Shown here in pieces: positions 2,950 through 24,566 of a DNA stretch of 45,246 nucleotides. The position numbers and the translations under genes were made by a program. Position 1 is the stretch's first letter; every line of letters starts with the position of its first letter. The notes beneath the pieces were generated by a model that had not been told where the DNA came from, searched no databases, and was given only the letters and a program-made list of their open reading frames with translations. The stretch comes from an uncultured Candidatus Saccharibacteria bacterium (GTDB taxonomy: Bacteria > Patescibacteriota > Saccharimonadia > Saccharimonadales > CAIOMD01): NCBI GenBank assembly GCA_964539035.1, contig CAZIHK010000010.1, positions 1-45,246 on the forward strand. The letters are read 5' to 3'.

Positions 2950-3453
2950 CTAATTATTGTTAATCATAAATAGTTCCGAGTATTCAGCAATAGTCATCAT
3001 CTCTACATTGCTTTGGGATTTGTGCTCTAAAATATCTTTATCACCTGTAATGATAAAGGCTTTTTGGGCTATAGCAAGACGCAAAATATCCGTGTCGTTT
3101 ATGTCTCGGATTTCTTCTTTCGACGGTATGTCATAATCATGGCAATATTCTACTAATTTTTGTCTTACTTGGCGTACAAATTTTTGTGATACTTTAGGCC
3201 GGACTATTTTCAAAAAATTTACAAACTCATCTATTGTGTAATCCGACAAAACCATCTCTTGGTGGGCTAGGACGTGCCTTAATGTAATTTCTGGTTCGCC
3301 ACCATATAAAATCGCACTTATAAGAATGTTTGTATCAACTACAATACGGTAACGATTCTTACTTTTGGGTAAACCAGCGGCCTGATTTGCGGCGTGTTTC
3401 TGTAATAGTGTCAGCCACTTGTTTCTCCGGCTGGGTTTTAGTTTGGGCGCCAA
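2950..3453 (-). CDS. PIN-domain toxin (PIN_3 / TIGR00305-like); start uncertain
   Basis: RYRIVVDTNILISAI...IITGDKDIL are PIN acidic motifs. The open frame extends to 3579 but overlaps the upstream RHH gene. There is no in-frame ATG between 3565 and the domain start (~3354). The in-frame TTG at 3453 or GTG at 3468 are the nearest candidate starts. Confidence 0.6.
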   Translation of the reverse strand: MAPKLKPSRRNKWLTLLQKHAANQAAGLPKSKNRYRIVVDTNILISAILYGGEPEITLRHVLAHQEMVLSDYTIDEFVNFLKIVRPKVSQKFVRQVRQKLVEYCHDYDIPSKEEIRDINDTDILRLAIAQKAFIITGDKDILEHKSQSNVEMMTIAEYSELFMINNN

Positions 3454-3625
3454 CTTTTTTGCCTTCACGGAAAATATACTCCCATTCTGTTTCGTTTTTA
3501 AGATATTGCATGGCTGCAGCTCGCAAAAAATCGCTACGGCTGCCAAACTGCTCTGTTGCCTTAGCATCAATTTGTTCAACTAAAGCCCTTGGGAACGAAA
3601 TGTTAAACGTTTGCGCATCTGCCAT
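3359..3625 (-). CDS. Ribbon-helix-helix (CopG/Arc-like) antitoxin
   Basis: Trimmed to the ATG at 3625 (MADAQTFNISFPRALVEQIDAKA...SRSDFLRAAAMQYL), with AAAGGA SD upstream. This is the RHH beta-strand/helix pattern, and the gene lies immediately upstream of the PIN gene. Confidence 0.65.
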   Translation of the reverse strand: MADAQTFNISFPRALVEQIDAKATEQFGSRSDFLRAAAMQYLKNETEWEYIFREGKKVGAQTKTQPEKQVADTITETRRKSGRWFTQK

Positions 3626-5907: not shown

Positions 5908-5998
5908 GGAGAGGTCGCATAGTTGGTCTAGTGCGCCGCCTTGGAAAGGCGGTATAGGGGCAACTCTATCAAGGGTTCGAATCCCTTCCTCTCCGCCA
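5908..5998 (+). tRNA. tRNA-Ser (anticodon GGA), type II with long variable arm, CCA encoded
   Basis: Hand-folded cloverleaf: acceptor GGAGAGG/CCTCTCC, 3-bp D stem GCA/TGC, anticodon stem CCGCC/GGCGG with loop TTGGAAA, variable arm TATAGGGGCAACTCTATC, T arm AAGGG-TTCGAAT-CCCTT, discriminator G plus CCA. Confidence 0.9.
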
Positions 5999-6164: not shown

Positions 6165-6179
6165 CCTTCCTCTCCGCCA
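6165..6179 (+). repeat. Direct repeat of the tRNA-Ser 3' end (att-like)
   Basis: ccttcctctccgcca at 6165..6179 is identical to 5984..5998 (T-arm 3' strand, acceptor 3' strand and CCA). Confidence 0.6.
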
Positions 6180-6250: not shown

Positions 6251-6778
6251 TTACCGAATAGTGTCGAGCTCTTGTTTTAATGCTAGCCTTGCAAGGTTTC
6301 TAAATATTCCAGCGTAAACTTGAGATTCGTCATATCCTTCTCTAAATTCTAGCAACCAGCTATCCTCTAGCTCTTCTAGCCTTGACACCTTTAGTTGGGC
6401 ACCGCTTGTTGCGCTTTCCCATTCAAAATATTGGGCATCTTCTGAGCCAAATTCGGCAAAACCAGACATCCCGTTATGTAAATGTCGACGTGGTTCACCA
6501 CTGTATACCCTGCCACCAAAAGAGTTGGTCGCCATGTACACGCAATCGGGTTTGGCTATTTCTTCAAGGTTTGATATCTCATATTGATACATTCTATCTA
6601 TAGTTGGGAGGCCATTGCATAAACTTTGGGATATTTCGCTAACATTTGCAAAACTAATAACTATGCCAGGCCTAACTTTTTCAAAAAGTTCCTCAAAAGC
6701 AAGATCTTCGGTCTTAGCTACTTGGGATTCTCTCAATCCTTCATTTATTGCTTCTTTTTCGCTAATAGTCGTTTTCAT
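6251..6778 (-). CDS. Hypothetical protein, island family C copy 1 (175 aa)
   Basis: Paralog of 23690..24214. Shared motifs: S.SLCN.LP, PD.VY.AT.S.GGR...GEP.RH..HG.S..AEF...DA..FEW.SATSGA, ES.VYAGI..NLAR. Its start overlaps the upstream stop (TAATG). Confidence 0.65.
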   Translation of the reverse strand: MKTTISEKEAINEGLRESQVAKTEDLAFEELFEKVRPGIVISFANVSEISQSLCNGLPTIDRMYQYEISNLEEIAKPDCVYMATNSFGGRVYSGEPRRHLHNGMSGFAEFGSEDAQYFEWESATSGAQLKVSRLEELEDSWLLEFREGYDESQVYAGIFRNLARLALKQELDTIR

Positions 6779-7530
6779 TATTTAGATTCCTCTTTCTCTT
6801 CTTTTTCGCTAATATCCTTAAACATAAGTATGCTAATGTAAGCTATTTCTGGTTCGTCTATTCTGTAAATATCACCGAGCAATGGATTGTCATGTAATTC
6901 TTTGGCATCTACTCTACGGCCAAGCAAAAGCTCTATTGCCTCCAAATGGCTACCTAGGCTATCCCATAACTTCAAAAATACTGGTTCTATATCCGAAAGT
7001 CTTGCATCTGTCTCAAGCCCATGAATTTTACGTGTTACGGCACCATATTCATCTACGACTGGGCACTTTTTGCTAAATTCATTATTTAGTTTTGGGGTCT
7101 CAGTTATGCCTATAGCCTCATCCCTATTGGATAAATTGCTAGTAATATTGTCGGTATTGATATGCTCTAATCCTACAAATCCCAGGTGCCTAAAAATTGC
7201 AGTTTTTTTGGTTTGACCATCTTCACCCTGTTCTTCAATAACTTCGCGTCTAGAAAAAGCATAAACTGGAGCTAGACCCGATTGAGTTAGTTCATACTCC
7301 AGGGGTCTCATAAAATACGGGGCACCACCTATCATTGCCAATTCGCAATTCGACCTAAGTGCAATATCGGCTAATTGCCGTGCCCTAGCGACCATCTCGT
7401 ATATATTTGGTATTTCCTCAAAGGTCAGTAGGGCTTGTATATGGTGCTTGTCTTCTTCGCTTGGCTCAATTACACCTTGAGATATTTGCTCGGCGTTAGC
7501 CTGGTGTTGGGTTAAGTTAAAAATATTCAT
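6778..7530 (-). CDS. Hypothetical protein (250 aa), N-terminal alpha/beta-like domain
   Basis: AAGGAG SD before the ATG. Motifs ELAMIGGAPYFM...YAFSRRE...FRHLGF. No family named. Confidence 0.65.
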   Translation of the reverse strand: MNIFNLTQHQANAEQISQGVIEPSEEDKHHIQALLTFEEIPNIYEMVARARQLADIALRSNCELAMIGGAPYFMRPLEYELTQSGLAPVYAFSRREVIEEQGEDGQTKKTAIFRHLGFVGLEHINTDNITSNLSNRDEAIGITETPKLNNEFSKKCPVVDEYGAVTRKIHGLETDARLSDIEPVFLKLWDSLGSHLEAIELLLGRRVDAKELHDNPLLGDIYRIDEPEIAYISILMFKDISEKEEKEESK

Positions 7531-7557
7531 CTAGTGTCTCTCCTTAGTTATTTTATA

Positions 7558-7625
7558 TTGGGCTTGTTAAAGCTTCATAGGGCAGGTAAGCGTTGCCTAA
7601 CCTATGGAACCTTTAAGTGGTTCCG
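7558..7625. repeat. Conserved imperfect-palindrome element, copy a
   Basis: 68 nt, near-identical in its arms to 9081..9148. Stems CATAGG/CCTATG, GGCA/TGCC and GGAACC/GGTTCC are conserved while the internal loop differs. Confidence 0.6.
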
Positions 7626-7635
7626 GAGTTTTTGA

Positions 7636-7688
7636 TCAATAATCTGTGCTAATGGTCGTTTTCATTATTTAGATTCCTCTTCCTCTTG
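7636..7688 (-). pseudogene. Relic of a duplicated family-C gene start plus the preceding gene end
   Basis: 7648..7688 matches 6761..6801 at 38 of 41 nt. The relic reads ...EEEESK* then ATG (7665) MKTTISTDY* (stop 7638..7636), versus intact MKTTISEKE... at 6778. Confidence 0.5.
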
Positions 7689-7788
7689 TTACTTACCAAA
7701 AACCTTAAATATACAAAGATCGACACAGGCAAATTCAGCTTGATCGACTAGCCACAAACTACCCAATAATTCAGATTTTACTTGCATA

Positions 7789-8517: not shown

Positions 8518-9057
8518 TTATCTCCTAAATTTACTTAGATGTTGGAACACGACTGCTGTTTGGGCGGAGTCGTATAACGGATTATGAGTACCTCCAGCAT
8601 AATCTTCTGGGCTAACAGTAATCCCGTATTTTTTGGCGTAGCTGTCTACCGAAGTAGGATCTTCGTTTATTTGTAGCAAGCTTGCCGATAAATCAATAAG
8701 AGGATAGGGGCCATCAAAGTCACCGATATAACCTCTGTCATGCATGTCTTTGATAAGCCCAGACTCTACCGGTGTGGCCATGTGTGCGATAACCAATGAT
8801 CCTAAATTCTTGGCCTTTTCGATGTAATAGTCAGAAAAATCTTTCAATAAGGCATCGTAAGTGCCATGTGATATGTCAATCGACTCCATCTGAGGTAATA
8901 CATTTTGTGCAACCCACTCGTTAACTTCTTCTTCAATTGGGCATCGACCAATAAATCTATCGGTCTCGTCGCAGCCTTCGTAATATATTGCGGCAACCGC
9001 AAATGGTTGGCCCCAAAGACCGTTAGTCTCTGCGTCAAAGCTAAATATTTTTGTCAT
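8518..9057 (-). CDS. DEDDh-type (DnaQ/RNase T-like) 3'-5' exonuclease
   Basis: Exo I FSFDAETNGL (DxE), an internal acidic motif, and Exo III GTHNPLYDSAQTA (Hx4D). AAGGA SD. Stand-alone 179-aa domain. Confidence 0.7.
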   Translation of the reverse strand: MTKIFSFDAETNGLWGQPFAVAAIYYEGCDETDRFIGRCPIEEEVNEWVAQNVLPQMESIDISHGTYDALLKDFSDYYIEKAKNLGSLVIAHMATPVESGLIKDMHDRGYIGDFDGPYPLIDLSASLLQINEDPTSVDSYAKKYGITVSPEDYAGGTHNPLYDSAQTAVVFQHLSKFRR

Positions 9058-9080
9058 TGTTTAAATCCTTTTTTAGTTTA

Positions 9081-9148
9081 TTGGGCTTGTTAAAGCTCCA
9101 TAGGATAGGCAAGTATTGCCAAGCCTATGGAACCTTTAAGTGGTTCCG
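9081..9148. repeat. Conserved imperfect-palindrome element, copy b
   Basis: ttgggcttgttaaagctccatagg...cctatggaacctttaagtggttccg; see 7558..7625. It lies 24 nt upstream of the exonuclease start codon (minus strand). Confidence 0.6.
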
Positions 9149-9225
9149 TTATTTATTTGGTCTGCCAACTGCGCTTTTTGTGAGGATCTTTATCTAGTGA
9201 TCATTATTAATTTTGTATATCTAGA

Positions 9226-9322: not shown

Positions 9323-9351
9323 ATTATGATATAAAATTGATAATATGTCAA
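9323..9351 (-). promoter_or_regulatory. Putative sigma70-type promoter for operon 1 (minus strand)
   Basis: Minus-strand TTGACA (rc of 9346..9351), 17-nt spacer, CATAAT (rc of 9323..9328). The -35 lies within the conserved tATGTCAATa heptamer context. Confidence 0.45.
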
Positions 9352-9437: not shown

Positions 9438-10169
9438 ATGGAATTAGACATTTGCCTAAAAGCCGGGTTAAACGAATCGCAAGCTGTTACTTATTTGCAC
9501 TTAATTGACAACGGGCCACTTACACCGCCAGAGATTGCCGAAGACATTAGCGAGTCTAGAACCAATGTTTATAACATTTTGAATCAACTGCAAAAATTTG
9601 GATTAGTAGAGACCTCACCTGGTAAAAAATCTTTATTTATGGCCAAGAACCCTAGCGCACTAAAACAGCTGGCTGTTTTTAGAGCCCAACAAGCCCAAAA
9701 AACATTACAAGAAATAAACGCCTTATTACCAAATATAATGTCGAAATTCCGCCTATCTCATGACCAGGCTGGGGTGGTGCATATGGATGGCGTAGATGCT
9801 TACGAAGACATTTTTGATGATATTTTTAGAGAAAAATCAGAAGTAACGATTATTAGAAGCGCCCAAGAAACTAACGATCCAGCAATACTTATCGAAATCG
9901 AAAAGCAAATCAAAAGATTGAATAAAGCTAAAATAAATTGCAAAATTATTGAGCCAAAACTTTTTGAAAAATACAATCATAATCTGGCCAATAATATATT
10001 CGTAAAATACTCGGACGACAAACCCATGCCATCCCAGTTGATACTTTATGGCAATAATTTAGTTTTTAACACTTTTGTCGATGGGGTTTCTTGTACGGTA
10101 ATAACTGACCCTAACATTGCAGAAACCCATAGATTTATATTTGAGTTTATGTGGAATAATCTAAAATAA
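9438..10169 (+). CDS. TrmB-family wHTH transcriptional regulator, paralog 1
   Basis: N-terminus GLNESQAVTYLHLIDNGPLTPPEIAEDISESRTNVYNILNQLQKFGLVE is the TrmB-type winged helix. ~245 aa, like the three other copies. Confidence 0.75.
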   Translation: MELDICLKAGLNESQAVTYLHLIDNGPLTPPEIAEDISESRTNVYNILNQLQKFGLVETSPGKKSLFMAKNPSALKQLAVFRAQQAQKTLQEINALLPNIMSKFRLSHDQAGVVHMDGVDAYEDIFDDIFREKSEVTIIRSAQETNDPAILIEIEKQIKRLNKAKINCKIIEPKLFEKYNHNLANNIFVKYSDDKPMPSQLILYGNNLVFNTFVDGVSCTVITDPNIAETHRFIFEFMWNNLK

Positions 10170-10295: not shown

Positions 10296-11117
10296 ATGAC
10301 AGATAGTCACATAATAACCACAGAAAAGCTGCTTCAAGACATAAAACCAGTCATTGATTATTACAAAAAACCGGAGGTGGCTGGTATTTTGTTATATGGT
10401 AGCTGGGGTAGGGGTGAGCAATTGCCGCATTCTGATGTAGATATTGCTGTTATTTGTAACAACAAACATGCGGTCGAAGAAATAGAAGACACTAACTGGG
10501 AAATTAACGATTATTTTGTAGAACCAACTAAGTACGATTACGAATATTTATTTACCCAATCTTTGCCAGAAAGGATGTTTCGTGAATTCGGCCATTTTTG
10601 GACAGAAGATACACGCTTTAATTGGCAACAATCCAAAATTCTTTATGACCAAAACGACATAGTTAAACAATTACTGGCTAAAAAAGCCTACCTACCAGCC
10701 AAAGAAGCAGAAGCTAACCTAAATGTAATTATTATTGTCATAGAAAGGTTGTTGAACTACCACTTGCCGAGATATGTAGATGCTGAAAAATACGTTGAAG
10801 CTCAAATACTATTGAATGGGCTGGTAAATCATGTGGTGCACTACATATACAACAAAAACGGGCTATTATTACCGTATTCATCAGCTTTATTTTATTGGTT
10901 TGATAAAAAAGATTTGCTGGGTAAGCAATCAGTATTGAATCTATTTAGTAATACCGGACTCAACAAAGATGAATGCTTACAGAGAATGAAATTATTTTGG
11001 GAAGTTTGCAATAAACTTGGGATTAAACTAAAAATACGAACCCAAAAAGAATATCTACAATACTTTTTTGAGCTCAACGGCACCAAAAAATGGGAAGATT
11101 ATTATGAAAAACAATAA
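10296..11117 (+). CDS. Nucleotidyltransferase-domain protein (Pol-beta superfamily, KNTase/ANT-like)
   Basis: GILLYGSWGRGEQLPHSDVDIAVI matches the GS-x9-12-DxD minimal NTase motif, followed by a helical C-terminal domain. Confidence 0.65.
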   Translation: MTDSHIITTEKLLQDIKPVIDYYKKPEVAGILLYGSWGRGEQLPHSDVDIAVICNNKHAVEEIEDTNWEINDYFVEPTKYDYEYLFTQSLPERMFREFGHFWTEDTRFNWQQSKILYDQNDIVKQLLAKKAYLPAKEAEANLNVIIIVIERLLNYHLPRYVDAEKYVEAQILLNGLVNHVVHYIYNKNGLLLPYSSALFYWFDKKDLLGKQSVLNLFSNTGLNKDECLQRMKLFWEVCNKLGIKLKIRTQKEYLQYFFELNGTKKWEDYYEKQ

Positions 11118-12027
11118 GGTTTTAATACTTACGGGCCCCGGTGGTTCCGGGAAATCTACAATTGCTGAGCTGTTGAATGATAAATACGGATATACTCTGA
11201 TTGATGGTGACCAATTAGATACCGAATTCTTCCCCGATGGTGGACAGTGGTTGCCGGAGAACAAATTGAGATTAGCGAATGCACATGACAAGATACTTAC
11301 CGCCACCAAAAAAGACTACCTCCTAGGTAAGAATATTGTTCTTGATTATATTATTTTTGGAGATTATTTGAATTTTTTTGATAAGTTTAAAAAAGAGTTT
11401 GGTAGTAATCTTGAGGTGAGAGTTTTACTACCCGGCGAAAAAGAAACCATTTTGCGAGATAAAGATAGGCAATGCTGGACAACTGGTGTCAAGCGCATAA
11501 AAACTGTACGAGAAGAGTTTATTAGTTTAAAGAATGGTATTGGAGAAGAGAACTTCATTGACACGTCAGATCAAACACCACAAGAAACGGCAGAGAATAT
11601 ATTTGAGACAACTACTAATTCGGCTAACCAAATTATGAAAAAGGTTGAATCAGCTGGCGGGGTAATAATTAACGAGTTCAGCGAAGTGGTAGTTGTATTT
11701 ACAGACACAAAAAGCTGGCAACTCCCAAAAGGTACGGTAGAAAAGGATGAAAGTTACTTTGATACTGCAACAAGAAAAATCAAAGAAGAAACGGGTTTAA
11801 AAAACCTTAATTATGTAAAAGAACTGCCTGCATATTCGAGGATATCCACACACGAGGATAACACCATTAGATATATTCATTATTTATTGTTCCGTACTAA
11901 AAAGCAAAATCTAACAGCAAGCGCGGAAGTGACAGAATGTAAGTGGGTACCAATTGAGGAGATCGAACACGAATTAACTCACCCAGAAGATAAACAATTT
12001 GTAAAAAATATTGTTAAAGAAATTTAA
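11104..12027 (+). CDS. Fusion protein: P-loop kinase-like domain plus NUDIX hydrolase domain
   Basis: Trimmed to the ATG at 11104 (MKNNKVLILTGPGGSGKSTIAELL, Walker A). The C-terminal NUDIX box is GTVEKDESYFDTATRKIKEETGL. It overlaps the upstream stop by 14 nt. Confidence 0.7.
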   Translation: MKNNKVLILTGPGGSGKSTIAELLNDKYGYTLIDGDQLDTEFFPDGGQWLPENKLRLANAHDKILTATKKDYLLGKNIVLDYIIFGDYLNFFDKFKKEFGSNLEVRVLLPGEKETILRDKDRQCWTTGVKRIKTVREEFISLKNGIGEENFIDTSDQTPQETAENIFETTTNSANQIMKKVESAGGVIINEFSEVVVVFTDTKSWQLPKGTVEKDESYFDTATRKIKEETGLKNLNYVKELPAYSRISTHEDNTIRYIHYLLFRTKKQNLTASAEVTECKWVPIEEIEHELTHPEDKQFVKNIVKEI

Positions 12028-15598: not shown

Positions 15599-16378
15599 AT
15601 GACTACAGACCAGCTAGTAGAAGTCGGCCTAACTCTGTCGCAGGCAAAAGCTTACCTTGCACTTTTAAAACATGGTGCTATGACCCCCACGGTATTAGCA
15701 GGTTTAATCGACGAAAGTAGAACAAATACCTATGCAGTGCTGGACAGATTGGTGGGTCTTAAGCTAGCAGAGCAAGTAAAAGGAACCAAAAAAGTTTATA
15801 AAGCCGCTAATCCAACGCATCTAGAAGAATATGTTAGACATCAAAAAGAAGTAGCCGAAGAAAAACAAGAAAAAGCTCGCCGACTAATGCCGGGTTTAAT
15901 GGATATGTATTTTAAAACGGATGCAGAGCCAGGAATTAGGTTTTTTAGGGGTAGGGAAGAATTGAAAAAGATTTTTATGGAGCAGTTAGAAACGCGGCAG
16001 ACGATTTACTTAATAAGATCTTCGGCCGACATCAAATACTACGATTTTGATTTTGTTAGCAATATAAGGTTGGCGGCTGCAAAATATGGCATCCAGCGCT
16101 ATGGGATATGCCCAGACATTAAAGAGACAAATCCAACAAGGCAAGACGACAAAAGAAGCAATTTAGATAGAACCTGGGTAGATAAAGACGATTATAATGC
16201 CGAGGTAGAGTGGACTATATTTGGCGATAAAGTATCGGCAATATCGTTTGGCAAAGAAGGGGTGGGGATGATTATTGAGAGCCCACAAATTGCCGAAAGC
16301 ATGCGCCAACTTTTTAATTTAGCCAAGGCCGGGGCAAAGGCTCGTTACCCTAAACCAAAATGGGGATATAAAAGCTAG
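15599..16378 (+). CDS. TrmB-family wHTH transcriptional regulator, paralog 2
   Basis: GLTLSQAKAYLALLKHGAMTPTVLAGLIDESRTNTYAVLDRLVGLKLAE. Confidence 0.75.
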   Translation: MTTDQLVEVGLTLSQAKAYLALLKHGAMTPTVLAGLIDESRTNTYAVLDRLVGLKLAEQVKGTKKVYKAANPTHLEEYVRHQKEVAEEKQEKARRLMPGLMDMYFKTDAEPGIRFFRGREELKKIFMEQLETRQTIYLIRSSADIKYYDFDFVSNIRLAAAKYGIQRYGICPDIKETNPTRQDDKRSNLDRTWVDKDDYNAEVEWTIFGDKVSAISFGKEGVGMIIESPQIAESMRQLFNLAKAGAKARYPKPKWGYKS

Positions 16379-16386: not shown

Positions 16387-17292
16387 CTAAAGAGCTTTGA
16401 ACAAAAGCTCTGTTTTAGTAATTATCGGTTTATTTAACCATTCTATACCAATATCAAAGTCTTTTTGATAGCTTTTGTCGTAAAGTTCAGTGATCTCTTT
16501 TTTCAAATTCACTAAATTACGGTCTCTCGCTTGCCACTTACTGTTCTCGAATATTTTATATCCCTTAGAGGCAAAAACATCCAATTGCAGATTTCGTAGT
16601 TTTGAAATAACAATAGATTCTATTGTCGTAACAATAAGTTGATGGCTTAAGACTTCTAAATCATCTATAGTTTTATCATTTTGCTGTAATTTTAGAATTC
16701 TTGCCAATTCTTGAGAATAACTATCAATGCTGATTCTTTCTAGTCTCTTAGTCTTTTCGCTTAAATCCTCGACGAATTCTAACAACTCTTTAGTTGGCTC
16801 AATCACTAGCTCTATCTGTTCTGCAGAGATTATAAGTTTATCTCGCTGGTCTTTGGCTAAATTGGCTAACTCATCCTTTTGAGCCCCCAATTTGTAAAAA
16901 GCAAGTTGTTTGCGCCCTGCAACATATTTTAGCGGGAAGCCAGTAATCTCGTCGCCACTGATAATAGCGTCAGTATACAAACCATAATCGACTCGGTAAT
17001 CTAAGGGCTTTTTTATTATAAAAATTTTACCTACCTCTTCTTTGTTTCGTGATGTTTCGCTTTCGCTAAAATGTTTATTTTCGCCCATAGCCCACCTTAA
17101 TGAATGGGCTAAGTCTGTAGAAATAGTGGCTCTACCTTCTCGAGCCGTAAAACCTGCATCTTTTATGTTTTCGGCGTTTGCTAAAGAGGCTGTACCATGT
17201 AGGAAATACTTAACACTGGCTAGAGATTCATCCCCATCGGATGAAATCAATCGTTCGTCATAAAGTATTTCGTGATTTTTAGATTGCTCCAT
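16387..17292 (-). CDS. Hypothetical protein (301 aa); N-terminal domain with HGT motif (possible ART-fold), helical C-terminus
   Basis: YFLHGTASLANAENIKDAGFTAREGRATISTDLAHSLRWA resembles the hHGT....I...GF...R..v.lS motif of Tpt1/KptA- and PARP-type NAD-binding folds. By-eye only. Confidence 0.3.
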   Translation of the reverse strand: MEQSKNHEILYDERLISSDGDESLASVKYFLHGTASLANAENIKDAGFTAREGRATISTDLAHSLRWAMGENKHFSESETSRNKEEVGKIFIIKKPLDYRVDYGLYTDAIISGDEITGFPLKYVAGRKQLAFYKLGAQKDELANLAKDQRDKLIISAEQIELVIEPTKELLEFVEDLSEKTKRLERISIDSYSQELARILKLQQNDKTIDDLEVLSHQLIVTTIESIVISKLRNLQLDVFASKGYKIFENSKWQARDRNLVNLKKEITELYDKSYQKDFDIGIEWLNKPIITKTELLFKAL

Positions 17293-17342
17293 ACAAGTTA
17301 GCTCTTACGATATTTAACAGTTTAATTTAATATTTTATTTAT

Positions 17343-17585
17343 CTAAATTATCTTGATTTTTTGTATAGCCAAAGTAGATAGCAAAAGCGTACTTGGCAGG
17401 ATCAAAGCGCTAAACCAAGGTTTGCTGGCATTTAGCCAGGCAAGAAATAGTCCTGCAAACAGATAGGTAATCACAAAAATTATTGATTTTCGGGTTTTAC
17501 TAAGCTCCCATGCCTTATCGGCAGTAACTTTTTTGTTGCGCAATTCTATTTTTGCTATGCGCTTTTCGAGCTCAATATTATTCAT
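17343..17585 (-). CDS. Small membrane protein (80 aa): N-terminal helix plus two TM segments
   Basis: ELEKRIAKIELRNKKVTADKAWE followed by two hydrophobic stretches. Confidence 0.55.
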   Translation of the reverse strand: MNNIELEKRIAKIELRNKKVTADKAWELSKTRKSIIFVITYLFAGLFLAWLNASKPWFSALILPSTLLLSTLAIQKIKII

Positions 17586-17603
17586 ACTATAATGTTTTGT
17601 CTG

Positions 17604-18320
17604 TTAACTGTTATTAAAAAAATTGGAATAGTCTGATTCAATATCAATTTCTTGTAATTTTAGATTAGATGTTTTAACCCCAAAAACATCATCATAAGAG
17701 TTGTCATAACAACCATCCAATAAATTATCCATACTAAATAAGTAGCAAGATAATTTTTTGCAAATTTCATATTGTTTTTGTTCGTAATCTATACTAGAAT
17801 CGTTTTTTTCATCAATGATTGGTGGTCCCATTGTGAAATCAGAAAAATCATTGTAAGCAGAAAAATCATGGTAAGCTATAAACATATTAGCTATATCTGG
17901 GTCGCAAAAACCTACGGGCTGGCTAAGCTGGCTAAAAAAGACTGGCCCACCAAAGACTGTTGATATCATTAAATCAAATGGGGTTCTGGTTTCTTGTGGA
18001 GCTAGAATTATGTCCTGATTGGTGGCCATATTAGTGTTTGGCGAAACTAAACACACATTAGCTTCACAATATTCTTCATCAGCAAACGTTACCAAAGCTA
18101 ACTGCTTTAAGATGTTTCGTTTGTCCACCGAGCAATTTTTACAATCGGGGTGTACGTCAACATAGCAAATATCTCCAAAAATAGGAGGATGCAAAAGGGG
18201 CGAAGGATTTAAATCTAGCGACTGCCAACTGTCATTGGCGGGAGTAAACAAACCATCTTGCTTAACCCATCTATAGCCGTCTAGCTCCCATTTCTCATTT
18301 GCGTTAAATTGTTCTTTCAT
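17604..18320 (-). CDS. Hypothetical protein, island family A copy 1 (238 aa)
   Basis: Shares WELDGYRW..QdG.F.PA...WQSLDL.P, GD.CY...HPDC, AN..LVS, IIL.P.ETR.PFD, VFF.QLS.PVGF with 18329..19000 and 19734..20564. Confidence 0.65.
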   Translation of the reverse strand: MKEQFNANEKWELDGYRWVKQDGLFTPANDSWQSLDLNPSPLLHPPIFGDICYVDVHPDCKNCSVDKRNILKQLALVTFADEEYCEANVCLVSPNTNMATNQDIILAPQETRTPFDLMISTVFGGPVFFSQLSQPVGFCDPDIANMFIAYHDFSAYNDFSDFTMGPPIIDEKNDSSIDYEQKQYEICKKLSCYLFSMDNLLDGCYDNSYDDVFGVKTSNLKLQEIDIESDYSNFFNNS

Positions 18321-18328
18321 AAAAGAGG

Positions 18329-19000
18329 CTATATTCCATTATCATCGTTAAATATTTGTTTGCTAACACAATAACAACTTAGTTTACTTACAATATCGCA
18401 ATGCTTTGATATTAGTTCTTGTCGCGAGTCCTTATGGTCTAGAATAGGGTTGCTTCTTTTTTCTTTAGGAAAGTCAGGTGCAAATCCTAGAGTACTTAGG
18501 GCCAATTTATCAATATTTTCTTGATCAATATATCCGACTGGCATACTTAGTTGATTATAATAAACTGTTCCACAACTTATCAGTTCGATTGCAATATCAA
18601 AAGGAATTCTTGCATCTTTTGAGTCTAGAATTACATCTCGGGAAACAGCCATATCTGTTTGATTAGTGGCTAGCATGAAGTTTGCCAAACCTTCTTCTTC
18701 ATAAACCATAAGAACACAACCAAGTTGTTTTTCGCTGACTTGGCACTTACTTAATAAGCAATCTGGGTGTTGGCTCAGATAGCAAAAATCACCCGGCCAG
18801 GGGACTTCTGTAATTGATACTGGCGATAAATCCAAGGGTTGCCATTCTTTGTCGGCTGGTACAAAAATACCGTTTTGGCGCATCCAGCGGTAGCCGTCTT
18901 CTGGCTCCCATCTCTCTATTAATTCATGATTATTATTTTTCGCTACATCATCGTTGTTTATATTGTAATTTTCCAAATTATTAGCATTATATTTTTCCAT
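18329..19000 (-). CDS. Hypothetical protein, island family A copy 2 (223 aa)
   Basis: Family A motifs as above. AAGGA SD. Confidence 0.65.
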   Translation of the reverse strand: MEKYNANNLENYNINNDDVAKNNNHELIERWEPEDGYRWMRQNGIFVPADKEWQPLDLSPVSITEVPWPGDFCYLSQHPDCLLSKCQVSEKQLGCVLMVYEEEGLANFMLATNQTDMAVSRDVILDSKDARIPFDIAIELISCGTVYYNQLSMPVGYIDQENIDKLALSTLGFAPDFPKEKRSNPILDHKDSRQELISKHCDIVSKLSCYCVSKQIFNDDNGI

Positions 19001-19014
19001 GGCTAAGTCCTTAA

Positions 19015-19722
19015 TTATTTAGCAGAATCGTTTTCATTTTCGATAATGATTTTGGGGTGTGGTAAATCCCAACCAGTGTGGCCTGTCCAATCCATATCGA
19101 TTCGATGAGAGTGCGTGTTTTTAGGTTCTATAAGTGTATTTATCCATGATACTTTTTCACATAAATCATGTGCGCAATCATGGCAAATAATAGCTGTACA
19201 TTGATCTAGCCTGCCTTTTTTAACCCAATCGCTGGTATCTAATCTGTCTTCTTCGAATAACCATTCTTGTGGAAACGGATCGACGAACATGCTATAACCA
19301 CCAGCCATGTTAACTATCAAAGCGTTATTGTACTGTACGCTACCTTTTTTAAACTGATTGGGAAATACAGGCTCTAGCTCTTTTTGACAAACAAAACATT
19401 GGTGAATATTTTCGTTTATCAATTCCGGGTTTTCTTGGTGGTGTTCATGTTCACAACCACAATAACTACCAGTAATGGCGTCAATTCTTTTTTCATCAAG
19501 TTCTTCGCGATAGGCGTTACTTTGTTCGTTGTAGATTCCTACCACAGTACTCCAAAACAATTCATTTTCTTTCGTGTCTTCCATCAACGTATCGCTATTC
19601 CACATTTCTTCGGCGGCATCGTAATCAGGGGCTAAATCACCGTCAATAATACATTTTAGCCAAAAAGCTTCACTCTCGGCTTCTATATAGTCATATCTTT
19701 GACTGTCTTTAAATTGTTCCAT
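19015..19722 (-). CDS. Hypothetical Cys/His-rich protein, island family B copy 1 (235 aa)
   Basis: Paralog of 20579..21289. Motifs: PDY..A.EMW.SD, HQCFVCQKELEPVFP, QYNNALI..GGY.MF.DP, AIICHDCAHDLC. AAGGAG SD. Confidence 0.65.
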   Translation of the reverse strand: MEQFKDSQRYDYIEAESEAFWLKCIIDGDLAPDYDAAEEMWNSDTLMEDTKENELFWSTVVGIYNEQSNAYREELDEKRIDAITGSYCGCEHEHHQENPELINENIHQCFVCQKELEPVFPNQFKKGSVQYNNALIVNMAGGYSMFVDPFPQEWLFEEDRLDTSDWVKKGRLDQCTAIICHDCAHDLCEKVSWINTLIEPKNTHSHRIDMDWTGHTGWDLPHPKIIIENENDSAK

Positions 19723-19733
19723 CTCTTATCTCC

Positions 19734-20564
19734 TTATTCTATTATCGATTTATTATCAATTTCGTTGTCGGCATCAAACAAAGTTCTGTTTAAACAGTAG
19801 CAGTATAACTTTTTCATTACATCCATTCGATGCAGTATTCTATCCCGTCGTGGATCTTCGTGGTCTATTATGGGTTCACCTCTTTTTTCTTTCGGAAAAT
19901 CAAGCTCACCACCCATGTAAGTGCTCTCATTTATTTTGTCGATAATATCTTGATTGGTATATCCTACTGGTTTACTCAGTTGATCAAAAAATACAGGGCC
20001 GCAAACTTGTTCAATCATCACATCAAAAGGTATTCTGGTTTCGTCGGGGCTAAGGATAACATCATCCGGACCCGCCATATCAAGTTTTCTTGACACAAGC
20101 ATAACATTTGCAAACTCTCCTTCCTCATCAACTAGATGTAAATAGGCAAGTTGCTTTTCATCGGTATGGCAATCTGGCATTTTACAACCCGGGTGCTGGG
20201 AAAGGTAACAAAAATCACCAGGCCAAGGGGTTTCCGTGGGTGAAAGAGGTGATAAATCTAATGATTGCCAATACTCATCGGCCGGTACAAACCTGCCATT
20301 TTGAAGCACCCACTTATAACCGTCATCTGCTTGCCATTTGTCTAGCGAATCAAGTTCTACTGTTTTTTTTGGTTTAAGCCTAAAGTTGGGCAACATATCC
20401 TCGGGTTTTTCTAGCAATTGCTCAGCTCTCTCTAGCATACCCAAATATTGATGCGCATCCTTGTAACCTTCGGCTTCGCCAGTTGCGATGAAACCTTTCA
20501 ATCTATCAGATTCTGTTTGAGCTTCATCCAAACTGTATCTTTGAATATCGTTATTATTTTCCAT
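19734..20564 (-). CDS. Hypothetical protein, island family A copy 3 with extra N-terminal module (276 aa)
   Basis: Family A core plus an N-terminal ~45 aa (QRYSLDEAQTESDRLKGFIATGEAEGYKDAH) shared with family B and the 117-aa ORF. AAGGAG SD. Confidence 0.65.
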   Translation of the reverse strand: MENNNDIQRYSLDEAQTESDRLKGFIATGEAEGYKDAHQYLGMLERAEQLLEKPEDMLPNFRLKPKKTVELDSLDKWQADDGYKWVLQNGRFVPADEYWQSLDLSPLSPTETPWPGDFCYLSQHPGCKMPDCHTDEKQLAYLHLVDEEGEFANVMLVSRKLDMAGPDDVILSPDETRIPFDVMIEQVCGPVFFDQLSKPVGYTNQDIIDKINESTYMGGELDFPKEKRGEPIIDHEDPRRDRILHRMDVMKKLYCYCLNRTLFDADNEIDNKSIIE

Positions 20565-20578
20565 AATTTTCTCCTTAA

Positions 20579-21289
20579 TTATTCTTCTGGAGAACCATCA
20601 AAAATTTCATATTCACCGTCAATCTCATCATTGTTCGATAGACCACAACCCTTATGTTCATCCAAATTATTTTCGTATCCAAAAGTATCCGAATAATCAG
20701 GGTTTATGAATCTGTCCATCCATGGTATTTGTTTGCAAAGATCATGCGCACAGTCCTGGCATATGATTGCCGAATACTCGTTTTCTATCAAGCCATTATT
20801 TAAGATTTCCTTGGGTTCCATATCTTCTATCAATATTGGATCAATATACATGCCATAACCTCCATCGATGTCGATTATTAAAGCATTTTCGTATTGTGTG
20901 CACTTTTTATTGAAATGAAAAACATCAGGAAACACAGGTATGAGCTCTGTGTGGCAAGCAAAACAATGGTGATAACTTTCATGCAGTTTATCACGATGTT
21001 CCTTAAGCCAATTAGCCTGATACTCATTTATATATTTATCACGTAGGTCAATGACTGTTCTCCAAAAAAATGCATTTTGATCGGTATCTTCTAGTAGTCG
21101 ATCACTGCCCCACATTTCATCAGCTGATTCGTAGTCAGGTGAAAAACCACTGTCAACCATACTCCTTAGCAATACTGCTTCATCTTCGGCTTGCTCTTTG
21201 CCAAGTCTGGCCGGATACTTATTTTCTTTCTGAGGGCTTTTAATATTGTTAATATCGTTATCCCAATTGTCTTCATAATTCTTTTTCAT
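20579..21289 (-). CDS. Hypothetical Cys/His-rich protein, island family B copy 2 (236 aa)
   Basis: HHCFACHTELIPVFP, QYENALI..GGYGMY.DP, AIICQDCAHDLC. AAGGAG SD. Confidence 0.65.
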   Translation of the reverse strand: MKKNYEDNWDNDINNIKSPQKENKYPARLGKEQAEDEAVLLRSMVDSGFSPDYESADEMWGSDRLLEDTDQNAFFWRTVIDLRDKYINEYQANWLKEHRDKLHESYHHCFACHTELIPVFPDVFHFNKKCTQYENALIIDIDGGYGMYIDPILIEDMEPKEILNNGLIENEYSAIICQDCAHDLCKQIPWMDRFINPDYSDTFGYENNLDEHKGCGLSNNDEIDGEYEIFDGSPEE

Positions 21290-21342
21290 CTTATCGTCTC
21301 CTTGTATTTAAAAAATTTGCGATAATTAGCGCTACTGTTCTC

Positions 21343-21696
21343 TTAGCCTTCTGGGCCATAATCAATTTGGAACTCTTTTCCGATACCGTGGTGTTGAATA
21401 TCGATTTTTTCCCAAATACCAAGATCATCTTGCTCTGGTGCTGGGGTTTCTATTACGCCAGTGAAAACGTCCCAGTCGTATTCATTCCAGTTCCATTCTT
21501 TCCACATGTGCTTATCCATTTCTTGCATCACTTTTTCGAAGCAAGAAGCCCAGCCGGCATCAACGATTCTTAAAAATTTAGCATGTGCTGATTTATAATC
21601 TTCGGCATAGTTATTCTTTACACAATCTTTAATTGCTTCAGCTTCTAGCTGTGCGGCTTCTATCCCTAATCTTTGGCAATCTATATATTCTTTCAT
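21343..21696 (-). CDS. Hypothetical protein (117 aa) carrying the shared N-terminal module
   Basis: CQRLGIEAAQLEAEAIKDCVKNNYAEDYKSAH aligns with the N-termini of 19015..19722, 19734..20564 and 20579..21289. W-rich C-terminus. Confidence 0.6.
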   Translation of the reverse strand: MKEYIDCQRLGIEAAQLEAEAIKDCVKNNYAEDYKSAHAKFLRIVDAGWASCFEKVMQEMDKHMWKEWNWNEYDWDVFTGVIETPAPEQDDLGIWEKIDIQHHGIGKEFQIDYGPEG

Positions 21697-21717
21697 TTTA
21701 ATTAACCTCTCGTGGCC

Positions 21718-22542
21718 TTAATTATTATTTAAAAATCGGTGTAATTTTTGTTCGGTTTCACTGTCAACCAAATTATCTTTAATGATTATGTATTCTGCCT
21801 TAAAGCCATAGCCTCTTAAAATATCCAGTACTTCTTCTTGTGAATCCTTGTTATTTTGCAGGTCTTCTTGCAATAGCTCGAATATTTCAGACTTATTATC
21901 GTCCAACCAAAGAATTGGACTGTTTCCTATATATTGAACGAGTAGCATTGTTTTAATACTTTTGTTAAATGTTGATTCACCTATCACGCTAACGGGTTGG
22001 ACGTCGGTAAGCGGAACTTTTGAAATTTTTGTTCCATTTTCATTGTCTTCCATGCAATCTGATTCATAAATATAGTCGTCATCTAGGTCATGAAATACCT
22101 CTGCCCTAGTGAATCTAGCTGAACTATTAATTACTAAATCATTTGCTGAAGGTACAATTATAGGTAGTTGAACCATAGCGCTTCTGGCCTCGGGATCTCG
22201 TGGTGAAAATAGATAGTTAAATAAATAGCTTGGGTGAAAATGTATGTCTATCACAACATCAAAATTATCTGGATCTATGTCATTATCGTATAAGTCTGAT
22301 TGATAAATACTACCTAAAAACATTCCTTTGATATGATTGGTACCACAAGCACTAATACTTTCAGTATTTCCGCTTTTTCTATCTTTTACAACGAAAAAAC
22401 CACTCTCATTACCTTCTTCTTTGTCAGTGAAGTTTGTACAAAAATCCCAACTACGAATAAATTCTCTCGAAGTAATTATTTGCTTTAACTCCTCAGCTGT
22501 TAGTTCCTCGTTGTTGTGAGATAACATCTCATGATTTCCCAT
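21718..22542 (-). CDS. Hypothetical protein (274 aa) with possible JAB/MPN (JAMM)-like motif; first gene of operon 3
   Basis: NESGFFVV ... IDIHFHPSYLFNYLFSPRD approximates E...HxH-x(7-10)-SxxD of JAMM/RadC-type metallopeptidases (spacing is 9, not 7). AAGGA SD. Confidence 0.35.
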   Translation of the reverse strand: MGNHEMLSHNNEELTAEELKQIITSREFIRSWDFCTNFTDKEEGNESGFFVVKDRKSGNTESISACGTNHIKGMFLGSIYQSDLYDNDIDPDNFDVVIDIHFHPSYLFNYLFSPRDPEARSAMVQLPIIVPSANDLVINSSARFTRAEVFHDLDDDYIYESDCMEDNENGTKISKVPLTDVQPVSVIGESTFNKSIKTMLLVQYIGNSPILWLDDNKSEIFELLQEDLQNNKDSQEEVLDILRGYGFKAEYIIIKDNLVDSETEQKLHRFLNNN

Positions 22543-22726
22543 AATTATATCCTTAAATTATCCCTTTCGCTCTTAAATTGAGCTCATCGGTACAGCAAAG
22601 TAGCTGTAGAGGGAGGCGCAAAGCGCTTTGGGTGATAAACCCTAAGTGCTTTTACGTGCTCTTACATTTGTTGATGGCTAAAACTATTGCCCCAAAGGTA
22701 CTTGTCCAAAATTGGACACGGCCATA

Positions 22727-22854: not shown

Positions 22855-23601
22855 ATGATAAAAGAAGCTTTATTAGAACAAGCAGGTCTTAACCAGAGCG
22901 AAGTAAAGGTATATAAACGACTGCTAGAATATGGCGAGCTTGCCCCACCTAGATTATCTGAACTAACAGGCCTGGCACGCCAAAACACCTATGCAGCACT
23001 AAAAACATTAACAAAAAAAGAGCTGATTGAGGTCGTATCACGCAGGAAAAAGCTTGCCTATCAGGTGCAACATCCCAATAAACTGGTCGAACTGGTCGAT
23101 AAACAGATAGATGAGTCTAAAATGGTCCAAAAATCCCTAAAAGCCAACATGCCAGAATTAATAAGTTTATTTAGTTTGGCTAGCAGCAAGCCCGGCATTA
23201 TTTATTTTGATGGGCTGGAAAGTATTAAAAATATATATTTAGATGGCTTAAGGTCTAAACCAGAAGAAGTATTGGTATTTAGGTCTACGCACGACGATGA
23301 TAAACTCGGGGTTTTTTTGACAAGTTTTAAGAAGCGCAGAGCTCTTAACGGCACAAAAACTAAAATGATTTCGCAAACGATACCCACCAAAGAGAAAATA
23401 GAAGAAGATAAACAACTACTCATACAACGAAAGTACGTACCTGACGATATTTTTCACCTAGATACTGAAATTGCAATTGCAGATAATCAAGTTTCTTTTA
23501 TAACTTTCGATAAGCAAATTAAAGGGTTTGTTATAACAAGTAAAGAGGTGGCACAGACTCTGCGAACAATTTTTGAGAGTCTCTGGGTAGCTGAATTTTA
23601 A
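22855..23601 (+). CDS. TrmB-family wHTH transcriptional regulator, paralog 3
   Basis: GLNQSEVKVYKRLLEYGELAPPRLSELTGLARQNTYAALKTLTKKELIE. Confidence 0.75.
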   Translation: MIKEALLEQAGLNQSEVKVYKRLLEYGELAPPRLSELTGLARQNTYAALKTLTKKELIEVVSRRKKLAYQVQHPNKLVELVDKQIDESKMVQKSLKANMPELISLFSLASSKPGIIYFDGLESIKNIYLDGLRSKPEEVLVFRSTHDDDKLGVFLTSFKKRRALNGTKTKMISQTIPTKEKIEEDKQLLIQRKYVPDDIFHLDTEIAIADNQVSFITFDKQIKGFVITSKEVAQTLRTIFESLWVAEF

Positions 23602-23608
23602 TAATATT

Positions 23609-23649
23609 AAAAACCCTCTGCAAATTTTGTAAAAATGCAGAGGGTTTTT
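23609..23649. terminator. Bidirectional intrinsic terminator
   Basis: AAAAACCCTCTGCA-N13-TGCAGAGGGTTTTT, a perfect 14-bp stem flanked by A and T runs, between convergent genes ending at 23601 (+) and 23690 (-). Confidence 0.75.
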
Positions 23650-23689
23650 ATTGCTTAATTGTCAGTTAAGCCAAAGCCACAAGTATGGC

Positions 23690-24214
23690 TTAGACTTCTA
23701 AGCTTACTTCTTGGCTAACAACCCATCTTGCAAGGTTAGCATAGATACCTGCATATACATTTGATTCATGCTCACCTTCTGCGAACTGAATCCTCCAGGT
23801 ACCGTCACTATTCTTTGTGGCTCTTATGGTTGCACCACTAGTGGCACTTTGCCATTCGAAAGATTCAGCATCATCAGGACTAAACTCGGCATAGGTAGAA
23901 ATACCATGGCCAATATGACGTGTTGGCTCACCAACCCAATCTCTTCCACCCATAGAATGAGTTGCAATATATACTCTGTCTGGCGATGCTATCTGATCTG
24001 GGTTTGTTATACCGTAATCTCTGGCTCTTTCTTCTTGTAGCGGCAAAGAATTGCATAAGCTATGAGATATCGTTACAACGTTTTGCCAATTTACGTCCAA
24101 TCCGTCTGGATGCATTTGTTGAGCGAATAAAAATGGTGATTCATATTCCTCACTTTCGTCACGGTATTCACCCAACCCTTCGGCGATTACAGTTTGTTTA
24201 TCTAAGTAATTCAT
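23690..24214 (-). CDS. Hypothetical protein, island family C copy 2 (174 aa)
   Basis: Paralog of 6251..6778 (motifs listed there). AAGGAG SD. Monocistronic, between the terminator and the divergent promoter region. Confidence 0.65.
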   Translation of the reverse strand: MNYLDKQTVIAEGLGEYRDESEEYESPFLFAQQMHPDGLDVNWQNVVTISHSLCNSLPLQEERARDYGITNPDQIASPDRVYIATHSMGGRDWVGEPTRHIGHGISTYAEFSPDDAESFEWQSATSGATIRATKNSDGTWRIQFAEGEHESNVYAGIYANLARWVVSQEVSLEV

Positions 24215-24259
24215 TATTACTTTTCTCCTTATTTGGTATTACTCTATAAATTATTTTAT

Positions 24260-24332
24260 AAAGCTCCTTAGGGCGGATCAGTCGGCTCCGACCTAAGGAG
24301 CTTTATACGGGTTAGAGCATGCCCAACCCGTA
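24260..24332. repeat. Hairpin element related to 7558..7625 and 9081..9148, plus a second hairpin
   Basis: AAAGCTCCTTAGG-N19-CCTAAGGAGCTTT (24260..24304). It begins with the same aaagctcc[a/t]tagg as the other copies and is followed by TACGGGTT-N11-AACCCGTA (24306..24332). Confidence 0.55.
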
Positions 24333-24449
24333 TATCGCATATATTCTTTTTAATGTTCACTAAGCGTTGTTGGTACCAGCTCAATTGTTTTTTGTTTTAA
24401 TGTTTTGTTTTTCCCGCTCGAGTTCTATGTGCTCGTTCGGGACAAATGC

Positions 24450-24478
24450 AGTATGCCATAAAATATATTATATGTCAA
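24450..24478 (-). promoter_or_regulatory. Putative promoter for family C copy 2 (minus strand)
   Basis: Minus-strand TTGACA (rc 24473..24478) within tATGTCAATa, 17 nt, CATACT (rc 24450..24455). Confidence 0.4.
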
Positions 24479-24517
24479 TACTTATCAGGATATAGTAACT
24501 AGTAACAGATGATATAA

Positions 24518-24537
24518 TGTCAATAAAGGATTGACAA
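24518..24537. promoter_or_regulatory. Perfect inverted repeat TGTCAAT-N6-ATTGACA (candidate operator)
   Basis: tgtcaat aaagga attgaca. The right arm is the -35 of the TrmB paralog 4 promoter. Confidence 0.45.
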
Positions 24538-24559: not shown

Positions 24560-24566
24560 GTGTGAG

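Follow-up and report, generated by a model that had tools for sequence, protein, structure and literature searches.

The stretch of DNA analysed here, a 45,246-nt contig (CAZIHK010000010.1) from an uncultured Candidatus Saccharibacteria bacterium, referred to below in its entirety as the window, carries three copies of a short imperfect palindrome, each of which lies just upstream of the start codon of a minus-strand gene, as had been stated in a first-pass annotation made from the letters alone. An identical sequence is deposited at NCBI among the contigs (45 kb) of the metagenome-assembled genome GCA_037129745.1. The window encodes ArgRS, DnaG, RpoD, DNA polymerase I, PGI, a MacB-type ABC transporter and a tRNA-Ser, and all three copies of the element are located within ∼6.0–25.4 kb, in a strain-variable island that adjoins the tRNA gene. 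A family C protein is encoded on every predicted transcript that bears the element. The copies (with their covariance model scores) and the genes that follow them are:

7556-7625, minus strand: copy 1, a 70-nt element within an operon (74 bits)
6778-7530, minus strand: 250-aa gene, downstream of copy 1
6251-6778, minus strand: family C gene, following the 250-aa gene
9079-9148, minus strand: copy 2, a 70-nt element at the 3′ end of the predicted exonuclease-operon leader (76 bits)
8518-9057, minus strand: DEDDh-type exonuclease gene (179 aa), downstream of copy 2
24257-24307, minus strand: copy 3 (hairpin B), an inverted repeat (72.7 bits)
23690-24214, minus strand: family C copy 2 (174 aa), downstream of copy 3 and 43% identical to the 6251-6778 gene

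Copies 1 and 2 were recovered by a repeat finder as a pair of direct repeats of 70 nt with 89% identity, the borders of which reach 2 nt further left than the 7558-7625 and 9081-9148 originally given; the near-identical arms and the differing central segments that had been described are both present at those places. Exactly two occurrences of the 25-nt right arm, CCTATGGAACCTTTAAGTGGTTCCG, were counted in the window, where 100 shuffles gave an expectation of 0.00. Read on the sense (minus) strand, copy 1 is laid out as CGGAACCACTT / AAGGTTCCATAGG / a 19-nt centre / CCTATGAAGCTTT / AACAAGCCCAATA, and the 11-nt and 13-nt flanks of the stem are also conserved in sequence between copies 1 and 2. 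These copies differ at eight places, seven of which fall inside the central 19 nt (hypergeometric p = 2.8e-4), the loops being 37% diverged and 50 of 51 non-loop positions common to both, and the similarity constitutes a sharply bounded 70-nt unit with an abrupt onset at CGGAACC. Copy 3 is, as first described, a more diverged copy with a perfect 13-bp stem; it is an inverted repeat with 21-nt arms that are 95% complementary, and its palindrome shares the arm AAAGCTCC[A/T]TAGG with copies 1 and 2. Its 13-nt arm, AAAGCTCCTTAGG, and that of copy 2, AAAGCTCCATAGG, are separated by a single mismatch, on both strands. The count of three refers to one 45-kb contig of the genome. A search with a covariance model built from the copies, as proposed with the first-pass annotation, retrieved two orthologues, and found no fourth copy in the window or in ∼100 kb of related loci.

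On the minus strand the folds of all three copies beat shuffled sequence (z = -3.0, -3.2, and -6.8 for copies 1, 2, and 3, respectively), and the copy 3 region contains the most stable 70-mer of the window. The copies share a shape in which an outer helix of ∼13 bp, conserved in sequence, leads into a short inner helix and a loop that are both variable, giving a stack of ∼18–21 bp steps. In copy 2 a 13-bp outer helix that includes two G-U pairs is continued by an inner GGCAA/UUGCC helix (13 bp + 5 bp), and in copy 3 a perfect outer stem of 13 bp, or 17 bp if its TATA extension is counted, is followed by a 1x1 U.C mismatch, an inner stem of 4 bp (17 bp + 4 bp when stacked) and a 9-nt loop. The arms of copies 1 and 2 differ as DNA by one mismatch and a 1-nt indel, and in minus-strand RNA of these copies a continuous 13-bp helix is formed via one G-U and one U-G pair. 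Within the variable centre, a 4-bp inner helix and a 1x1 pyrimidine mismatch keep their place, and the inner stems themselves differ in sequence (UAGG/CCUG, UUGG/CCUA, and CGGA/UCCG). A structural alignment was made of five sequences, comprising the three paralogues and two orthologues (see below), in which 92.9% of cells are paired and four pairs are changed on both sides; when the partner is slid by one column, pairing falls to 53–54%. Paired cells number 79 of 85 for the sense strand vs 73 of 85 for the antisense strand, with 8 and 2 G-U cells, respectively, and when neighbouring hairpins and the related locus L023 are included, independent wobble events amount to ∼8 on the sense strand vs 2 on the antisense strand (one-sided p ∼0.055). 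Pairing of the anti-Shine-Dalgarno or Shine-Dalgarno-mimic type within the stem was seen in copy 3 and was discarded as a general feature, as it is not shared across the copies or the related leaders.

Two diverged orthologous copies were recovered, one in locus L008 (JGI), which encodes a family C protein 86% identical to that of the window, and one in locus L021, the exonuclease of which is 95% identical. The L008 comparison also covers a second hairpin that directly adjoins copy 3:

24305-24334, minus strand: hairpin A, directly 5′ (in the sense direction) of copy 3, kept in L008 with a U-A to U-G change

Copy 3 differs from its L008 counterpart at 1 of 45 sites, whereas the adjacent gene differs at 15 of 60 fourfold-degenerate sites (p = 0.0009). 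No change is seen in the 19-nt loop, divergence is 37.5% in the more upstream part of the leader, and both L008 substitutions turn a Watson-Crick pair into a sense-strand G-U pair. In the comparison of copy 2 with L021, the arms and the arm-to-ATG stretch differ by 2–8% (2% for arm-to-ATG) vs 18% at fourfold sites, and the upstream leader differs by 4.3%. The L021 loop, however, differs at 5 of 19 positions (26%) and has gained 4 nt, which corresponds to the neutral rate, and the spacing of the arms is 19 nt in the window vs 23 nt in L021. The arms are under purifying selection in both orthologue comparisons, and constraint extends to the loop at copy 3, while the loop of copy 2 is free. Such selection would be strong enough to explain the likeness of the copy 1 and copy 2 arms, and gene conversion or recent transfer need not be invoked. 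Inversion or hypermutation of the loop was also considered and set aside, given that the loops are not mutual reverse complements and that the L021 loop has diverged at the rate of fourfold sites. Copies 1 and 2 additionally possess a small GGAACC/GGUUCC hairpin, located upstream, that overlaps the 5′ arm and would compete with the long hairpin; in L021 a G-to-C change (giving a C.C mismatch) weakens the small hairpin and improves the long one, indicating that the latter is the conserved fold.

These comparisons bear on the view that the copies are functionless relics of segmental duplication, for which the duplicated modules and gene remnants of the island (see below) provide some grounds. 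The element is nevertheless far more conserved than fourfold sites in two independent orthologue comparisons, the copy 1/2 differences are concentrated in the loop, and the likeness of these copies is confined to the sharp 70-nt unit, which together make this the least probable of the readings entertained here. Function of the plus (antisense) strand, whether as an antisense terminator, a cis-antisense small RNA or a small peptide gene, is likewise very improbable. On that strand copies 1 and 2 read GGAACC-N7-GGTTCC and then a T-rich tail, the folds are slightly more stable than those of the minus strand, and similar small open reading frames (ORFs) overlap the two copies, encoding 33 aa (7534-7635) and 48 aa (9051-9197) that have ..LLGLLKLHR.GK.C..YGTFKWFR.. 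in common. However, no promoter is predicted nearby on the plus strand, the terminator-like stem is mismatched in L021 and has no equivalent at copy 3, and the wobble bias favours the sense strand. Stop codons in L021 break the frame of the antisense ORF, which indicates that the small ORFs are by-products of the repeat, and a small antisense peptide was rejected.

The distance between the end of the hairpin and the ATG is 38 nt for copy 1 (ATG 7530), 34 nt for copy 2 (ATG 9057) and 45 nt for copy 3 (ATG 24214). Copy 1 sits inside the first operon, downstream of gene remnants, whereas copies 2 and 3, which have no gene upstream, sit at the 3′ ends of predicted leaders of ∼260 and ∼230 nt, respectively. 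Sigma-70-like promoters are predicted 170–190 nt upstream of these two hairpins:

9323-9351, minus strand: sigma-70-like promoter, TTGACA-17-CATAAT (11/12), with the copy 2 leader predicted to start at ∼9316
24450-24478, minus strand: sigma-70-like promoter, TTGACA-17-CATACT (10/12, with TG), with the copy 3 leader predicted to start at ∼24443

Both hexamers of the copy 3 promoter are retained in L008, and no promoter was predicted between any of the hairpins and its gene. The position of the hairpin between a predicted promoter and a gene raises the possibility of a leader attenuator or terminator, at which transcription would halt or pause ahead of the gene, with relief under some condition. 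The strong stem, with its AAAGC...GCUUU ends followed by UUUA, would suit such a mechanism, as would the GGAACC/GGUUCC hairpin of copies 1 and 2, which resembles an antiterminator. An intrinsic terminator would have a G+C-rich stem with a U-tract directly behind it on the transcribed strand, at a gene end. Past the stem of the element, however, the sense strand reads UUUAACAAGCCC or UUUAUAAAAUAA, with three U residues only and no U-tract, and a terminator scan called no minus-strand terminator at any of the three copies, in keeping with the first-pass statement that a U-run is absent and that these are not classic terminators. Classical terminators with long U-runs are used elsewhere in the genome (e.g., 23608-23650 and 30231-30256), the competing hairpin is weakened in L021, and no like overlap exists at the copy 3 stem; attenuation is thus considered unlikely.

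A second alternative arises from the organization of the island, which consists of four modules in which a plus-strand gene for a TrmB-like helix-turn-helix (HTH) protein faces a divergent minus-strand operon, the proteins of which are without Pfam domains:

9438-10169, plus strand: TrmB-like HTH regulator, divergent from the copy 2 operon
15599-16378, plus strand: TrmB-like HTH regulator
22855-23601, plus strand: TrmB-like HTH regulator
24558-25316, plus strand: TrmB-like HTH regulator, divergent from the copy 3 gene

The 13-bp inverted arms could in principle constitute a double-stranded DNA operator bound by a dimeric or tetrameric regulator, such as the TrmB-like neighbour, that acts as a roadblock. 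The arms are conserved in sequence around a variable spacer, copy 3 is a perfect palindrome, and copies 2 and 3 each lie 250–290 bp from a divergent TrmB-like gene. The spacing is not fixed, however (19 nt for the window, 23 nt for L021), the arms of copies 1 and 2 are made unequal by an indel, the half-site centres are ∼32 bp apart, and a DNA site would have no need of covarying pairing within its spacer. Furthermore, no regulator gene is found near copy 1, copies 2 and 3 lie 170–190 nt downstream of the promoter, and a better candidate is available in the palindrome TTGTCAAT-N5-7-ATTGACA, which is common to the intergenic regions upstream of the four TrmB-like genes, where it lies between the divergent promoters and overlaps their back-to-back -35 boxes. 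The instance at 24514-24538 is kept in L008 and in the distant loci L028, L031, and L033, and the palindrome is the likely operator. An RNA hairpin is preferred over a double-stranded DNA site because the spacing changes, the arm indel is bridged by G-U pairs, the inner stem covaries and the wobbles are those of the sense strand; the operator is regarded as quite unlikely.

The first-pass annotation had placed the element at cassette boundaries and had suggested a recombination site delimiting mobile cassettes, with arms loosely reminiscent of integron attC cores. The region is a strain-variable island, or integration hot spot, at a tRNA gene, as is evident from three observations. The interval from tRNA-Ser to a flavodoxin-like gene is ∼19.4 kb in the window vs ∼2.2 kb in relative L032, synteny with relative L026 likewise stops at the tRNA, with other genes in the island's place, and the last 14 nt of the tRNA gene are repeated at 6166-6179, 168 nt downstream. 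L026, for its part, repeats the end of the tRNA over 25 nt. Two gene fragments between the 241-aa gene and copy 1 (7636-7788) mark a scar; the tRNA gene and these fragments are located as follows:

5908-5998: tRNA-Ser(GGA)
7636-7665, minus strand: remnant of a family C start, nine codons (MKTTISTDY*), the stop of which ends 10 nt upstream of copy 1
7666-7788, minus strand: decayed 3′ end of a 250-aa-gene paralogue, the mark of an old duplication or rearrangement

For a recombination site or homology anchor delimiting shufflable modules, of an attC-like or PeSL-like kind, speak the location of all copies in this ∼19-kb island beside tRNA-Ser, the truncated gene remnant 10 nt from copy 1, and the conserved arms with a variable, still-paired centre, which recall attC architecture. 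In addition, the first start codon behind the third-module leader is the exact point at which L008 ceases to be syntenic. However, ORF domain searches detected no integrase, transposase or other recombinase encoded in the 45-kb window, no cassette array is present (three copies among ∼20 island genes), and neither terminal inverted repeats nor a target-site duplication were found. L021 and L008 show no breakpoint at copies 2 and 3, which are collinear with these orthologues on both sides, and the copy 1 scar fits an old tandem duplication equally well. The cassette-boundary description was therefore overstated, only copy 1 adjoining a rearrangement scar, and the mobile-cassette interpretation finds no support. 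A recombination site is considered distinctly improbable, and the conserved leaders could at most conceivably act as recombination anchors.

Palindromic repeats that are transcribed from intergenic regions, such as REP/BIME, ERIC, the Neisseria Correia/NEMIS elements and pneumococcal BOX/RUP, are present in tens to hundreds of copies, and many possess terminal inverted repeats, target-site duplications or a cognate transposase. The element resembles them as a short palindrome with sharp borders that forms a hairpin in RNA predicted to be co-transcribed, and which would be able to affect mRNA processing. In contrast to REP sequences and their RAYT partners, it is present in three copies with no Y1 transposase in the 45-kb contig, and it differs from miniature inverted-repeat transposable elements in that its unit ends, CGGAACCAC... 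and ...AAGCCCAATA, are not mutual inverted repeats and the copy 1 flanks contain no target-site duplication. Integron attC sites are defined by cores 5′-RYYYAAC ... GTTRRRY-3′ on either strand (PMC5027507). The element reads 5′-GTTAAAG...CTTTAAG-3′ on the plus strand and 5′-CTTAAAG...CTTTAAC-3′ on the minus strand, such that the boxes come in the reverse order; GTTAAAG departs from the consensus at the final Y and CTTTAAC at the first R, and the likeness to attC cores that had been noted is contradicted by polarity and consensus alike. As an imperfect palindrome with conserved outer arms, a variable but paired terminal structure and a bulged or mismatched base, it resembles attC (PMC5027507); its fold combines the variable terminal structure with a 1x1 mismatch and shows no clear R-box/L-box pattern with a spacer. 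Unlike attC, which is located at the 3′ ends of cassettes, the element is upstream of genes in leaders, no IntI or recombinase domain was found in the window ORFs, and adjacent genes overlap without an element between them. The PeSL elements of T4-type phages are composites of a sigma-70 promoter and an adjacent terminator stem-loop (PMC2839356). Like PeSL (PMC2839356, PMC4122927), the element recurs as a regulatory stem-loop within a hypervariable region where many genes are of unassigned function, with one copy beside a scar, whereas no promoter adjoins the hairpin (the nearest lying 170–190 nt upstream), the hairpin is not terminator-like, the context is a bacterial chromosome, and no recombinant junctions were seen within the copies. 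With respect to breakpoints of the PeSL type, copy 1 adjoins the gene remnants and copies 2 and 3 are collinear, as judged from two relatives only.

The reading that we favour, at about even confidence, is that the element is a cis-acting leader or intercistronic RNA stem-loop on the gene-sense (minus) strand that acts on processing, stability or translation. The first-pass annotation had listed a cis-regulatory leader or a processing or stability element among its options, and this part of it is supported by the position of the copies, purifying selection, tolerance of loop length, compensation in the inner stem and the sense-strand wobbles. In the proposed mechanism, a stem-loop would form in minus-strand RNA 34–45 nt before the start codon and would act in cis after transcription, most likely as a determinant of processing or stability. 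It could provide an entry site for a double-strand-specific ribonuclease of the RNase III type, cleavage by which would leave a defined 5′ end, or alternatively it could be a protective 5′ hairpin ahead of the ribosome-binding site that is left after cleavage; either variant would set the fate and translation of the next cistron independently of the RNA upstream. A helix of 18–21 steps held at a near-constant 34–45 nt from the start codon would fit a processing site or a protective hairpin. The next likeliest variant would be a translational operator bound by protein, and a bound regulatory protein is a serious alternative to a role in processing or stability.

Hairpins processed by RNase III occur in leader and intercistronic positions, e.g., the R0.3–R1.3 sites of phage T7, and 5′ stabilizer stem-loops are found in the ompA and aprE leaders. 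The element resembles these sites in having an imperfect helix of ∼20 bp with internal mismatches before a ribosome-binding site, in being repeated before several genes and in combining a conserved stem with a free loop. Its predicted 18–21-step helices, in RNA whose transcription is likewise predicted, also reach the size recognized by RNase III (approximately two turns of imperfect double-stranded RNA). It differs from the known sites in that its outer stem is conserved in sequence across old paralogues and has no sequence similarity to a known site, and in that it is known from sequence in an uncultivated host that probably belongs to the Patescibacteria. No rnc gene is present in the 45-kb window.

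Several observations weigh against the leader stem-loop. Conservation of the stem in sequence is unusual for a purely structural RNA and implies a partner that reads sequence. The promoters are consensus matches only, and transcription from them is predicted. Covariation is thin, being drawn from five sequences only, and the wobble strand bias (∼8 to 2) is not significant at p ∼0.055 and is suggestive rather than conclusive. In L021 the inner stem is lost and the fold is weak (z = -1.7), and in copy 1 the sense strand has a C.A mismatch where the other strand would give a U-G pair. The plus strand folds well too, and carries a terminator-like hairpin and then a T-rich tail.

As to origin, the copies would represent paralogous parts of duplicated modules of TrmB-like regulator and operon that have been kept by purifying selection, with no mobile spread. 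The scar at copy 1 is most simply accommodated by two steps, in which a unit of [element – 250-aa gene – first 18 nt of family C] would long ago have been duplicated in tandem and most of the upstream duplicate then lost or replaced, and such a history would explain the sharp CGGAACC onset of the similarity between copies 1 and 2.

The distribution of the element was investigated with patterns based on the exact arms and with the covariance model. Pattern scans of the reference genomes of GTDB species (596 Gb, 185,579 species) gave 10 matches, all of them unrelated palindromes, and scans of JGI metagenome contigs gave one match, which lies within a coding region and is attributed to chance. 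There were no matches among viral contigs and no copies in plasmid and phage records, and the covariance model, denoted R1, detected only the orthologues of the copies over the ∼100 kb of related loci, with nothing in L023–L032. Relatives of the neighbouring genes are similarly sparse: one close relative of family C was found, the exonuclease has a single relative at 95% (L021) and others at no more than 65% identity, which are without the element, and no homologues of the 241-aa protein were found. Among the sequences searched, the element is, as far as can be seen, confined to one narrowly sampled lineage. In the window only the tRNA reaches the gathering threshold of a family in Rfam 15, and permissive scans of the regions of the three copies returned weak matches of the chance type.

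Beyond the three copies, a possible degenerate relative is located in the leader of the third TrmB-paired operon:

22620-22653, minus strand: hairpin AAAGCACTTAGGG-loop-CCCAAAGCGCTTT, the arms of which resemble the element

The covariance model did not detect this doubtful relative; in L008 a different loop takes the place of its own, with 88% identity over the remainder of the leader. In the more distant relatives L023 (23 bp), L028, L031, and L033, a long hairpin also ends the leader of a TrmB-divergent operon before the ribosome-binding site. The sequences of these hairpins are unrelated to the element, suggesting that it is the architecture of the leader rather than its sequence that is conserved across distant modules.

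The distant family C loci have G+C-rich leaders of 350–540 nt downstream of a TrmB-divergent promoter:

L031, 196-556: G+C-rich family C leader
L033, 1524-2063 and 2408-3000: G+C-rich family C leaders
L028, 3210-3576: G+C-rich family C leader

Those of L031 and L033 have a number of conserved blocks in common and can be folded into a multi-helix consensus of 60 pairs, with compensatory double changes at 10 pairs, and the L031/L033 leader matches no Rfam family. The third-module leader of the window shares CAGCTACTT..GTACCGA.GAGC with L031. Long leaders of this type are a candidate for a new structured leader RNA, based on three distinct sequences. In an unlikely but more far-reaching extension, the hairpins would form the 3′ module, specific to this lineage, of long structured leader RNAs (230–540 nt) belonging to a family not yet described, which would serve as a ligand- or protein-responsive switch for TrmB-paired, strain-variable modules in Patescibacteria (DEDDh exonuclease, Csx20-like protein and family C), with the sequence doubling as a homology anchor for module swapping at the tRNA-Ser island. 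Hints in this direction are provided by the multi-helix L031/L033 leader and by the break in L008 synteny at the end of a leader.

The Patescibacteria possess very few recognizable regulators, and to our knowledge post-transcriptional control in this group (the candidate phyla radiation) is almost unexplored, with few regulatory RNAs described. A small, clearly selected element before genes of unassigned function in a variable island provides a handle on the expression of such modules. As it stands, the finding is of a well-supported but narrow, lineage-specific leader hairpin of a kind of system that is already known; the wider leader family, if real, would amount to a new class of structured RNA tied to TrmB-like regulators.

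With regard to the proteins encoded downstream of the copies, the N-terminus of the 250-aa protein has a weak match to the CRISPR-associated protein Csx20 (E = 6e-7 over ∼36 residues), and the 179-aa protein matches a DEDDh exonuclease model that is listed by PADLOC as cas-associated. The closest named homologues of the exonuclease are in Candidatus Jorgensenbacteria and in metagenome-assembled genomes of Paceibacterota, which makes membership of the organism in the Patescibacteria probable. No CRISPR array or cas gene was found in the window. A role of family C as an RNA-binding protein or nuclease was considered and not upheld, its structural model having a pLDDT of 71 with no fold match in the PDB and no sequence match. 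An origin of the stretch in a phage, suggested by gene density and A+T content, is ruled out by the housekeeping genes and is accompanied by no match to phage records. A circular replicon was likewise rejected, as there is no terminal overlap and the end of the window is adapter; positions 45200-45246 correspond to the Illumina Nextera adapter CTGTCTCTTATACACATCTCCGAGCCCACGAGAC, an assembly artefact.

The third operon of the island (16387-22542) includes tandem paralogues of unassigned function, among them 18410-19019 and 19836-20583, which are 70–74% identical over the reported repeat segments, and its gene content differs from that of relative L008. Beside the first TrmB-like gene, 10296-12027 encodes a nucleotidyltransferase with a Pol-beta fold and then a P-loop kinase-NUDIX fusion, both of which are weak matches to candidate defence families of PADLOC. 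Outside the island, a PIN-domain protein is encoded at 2950-3579, beside the ABC transporter.

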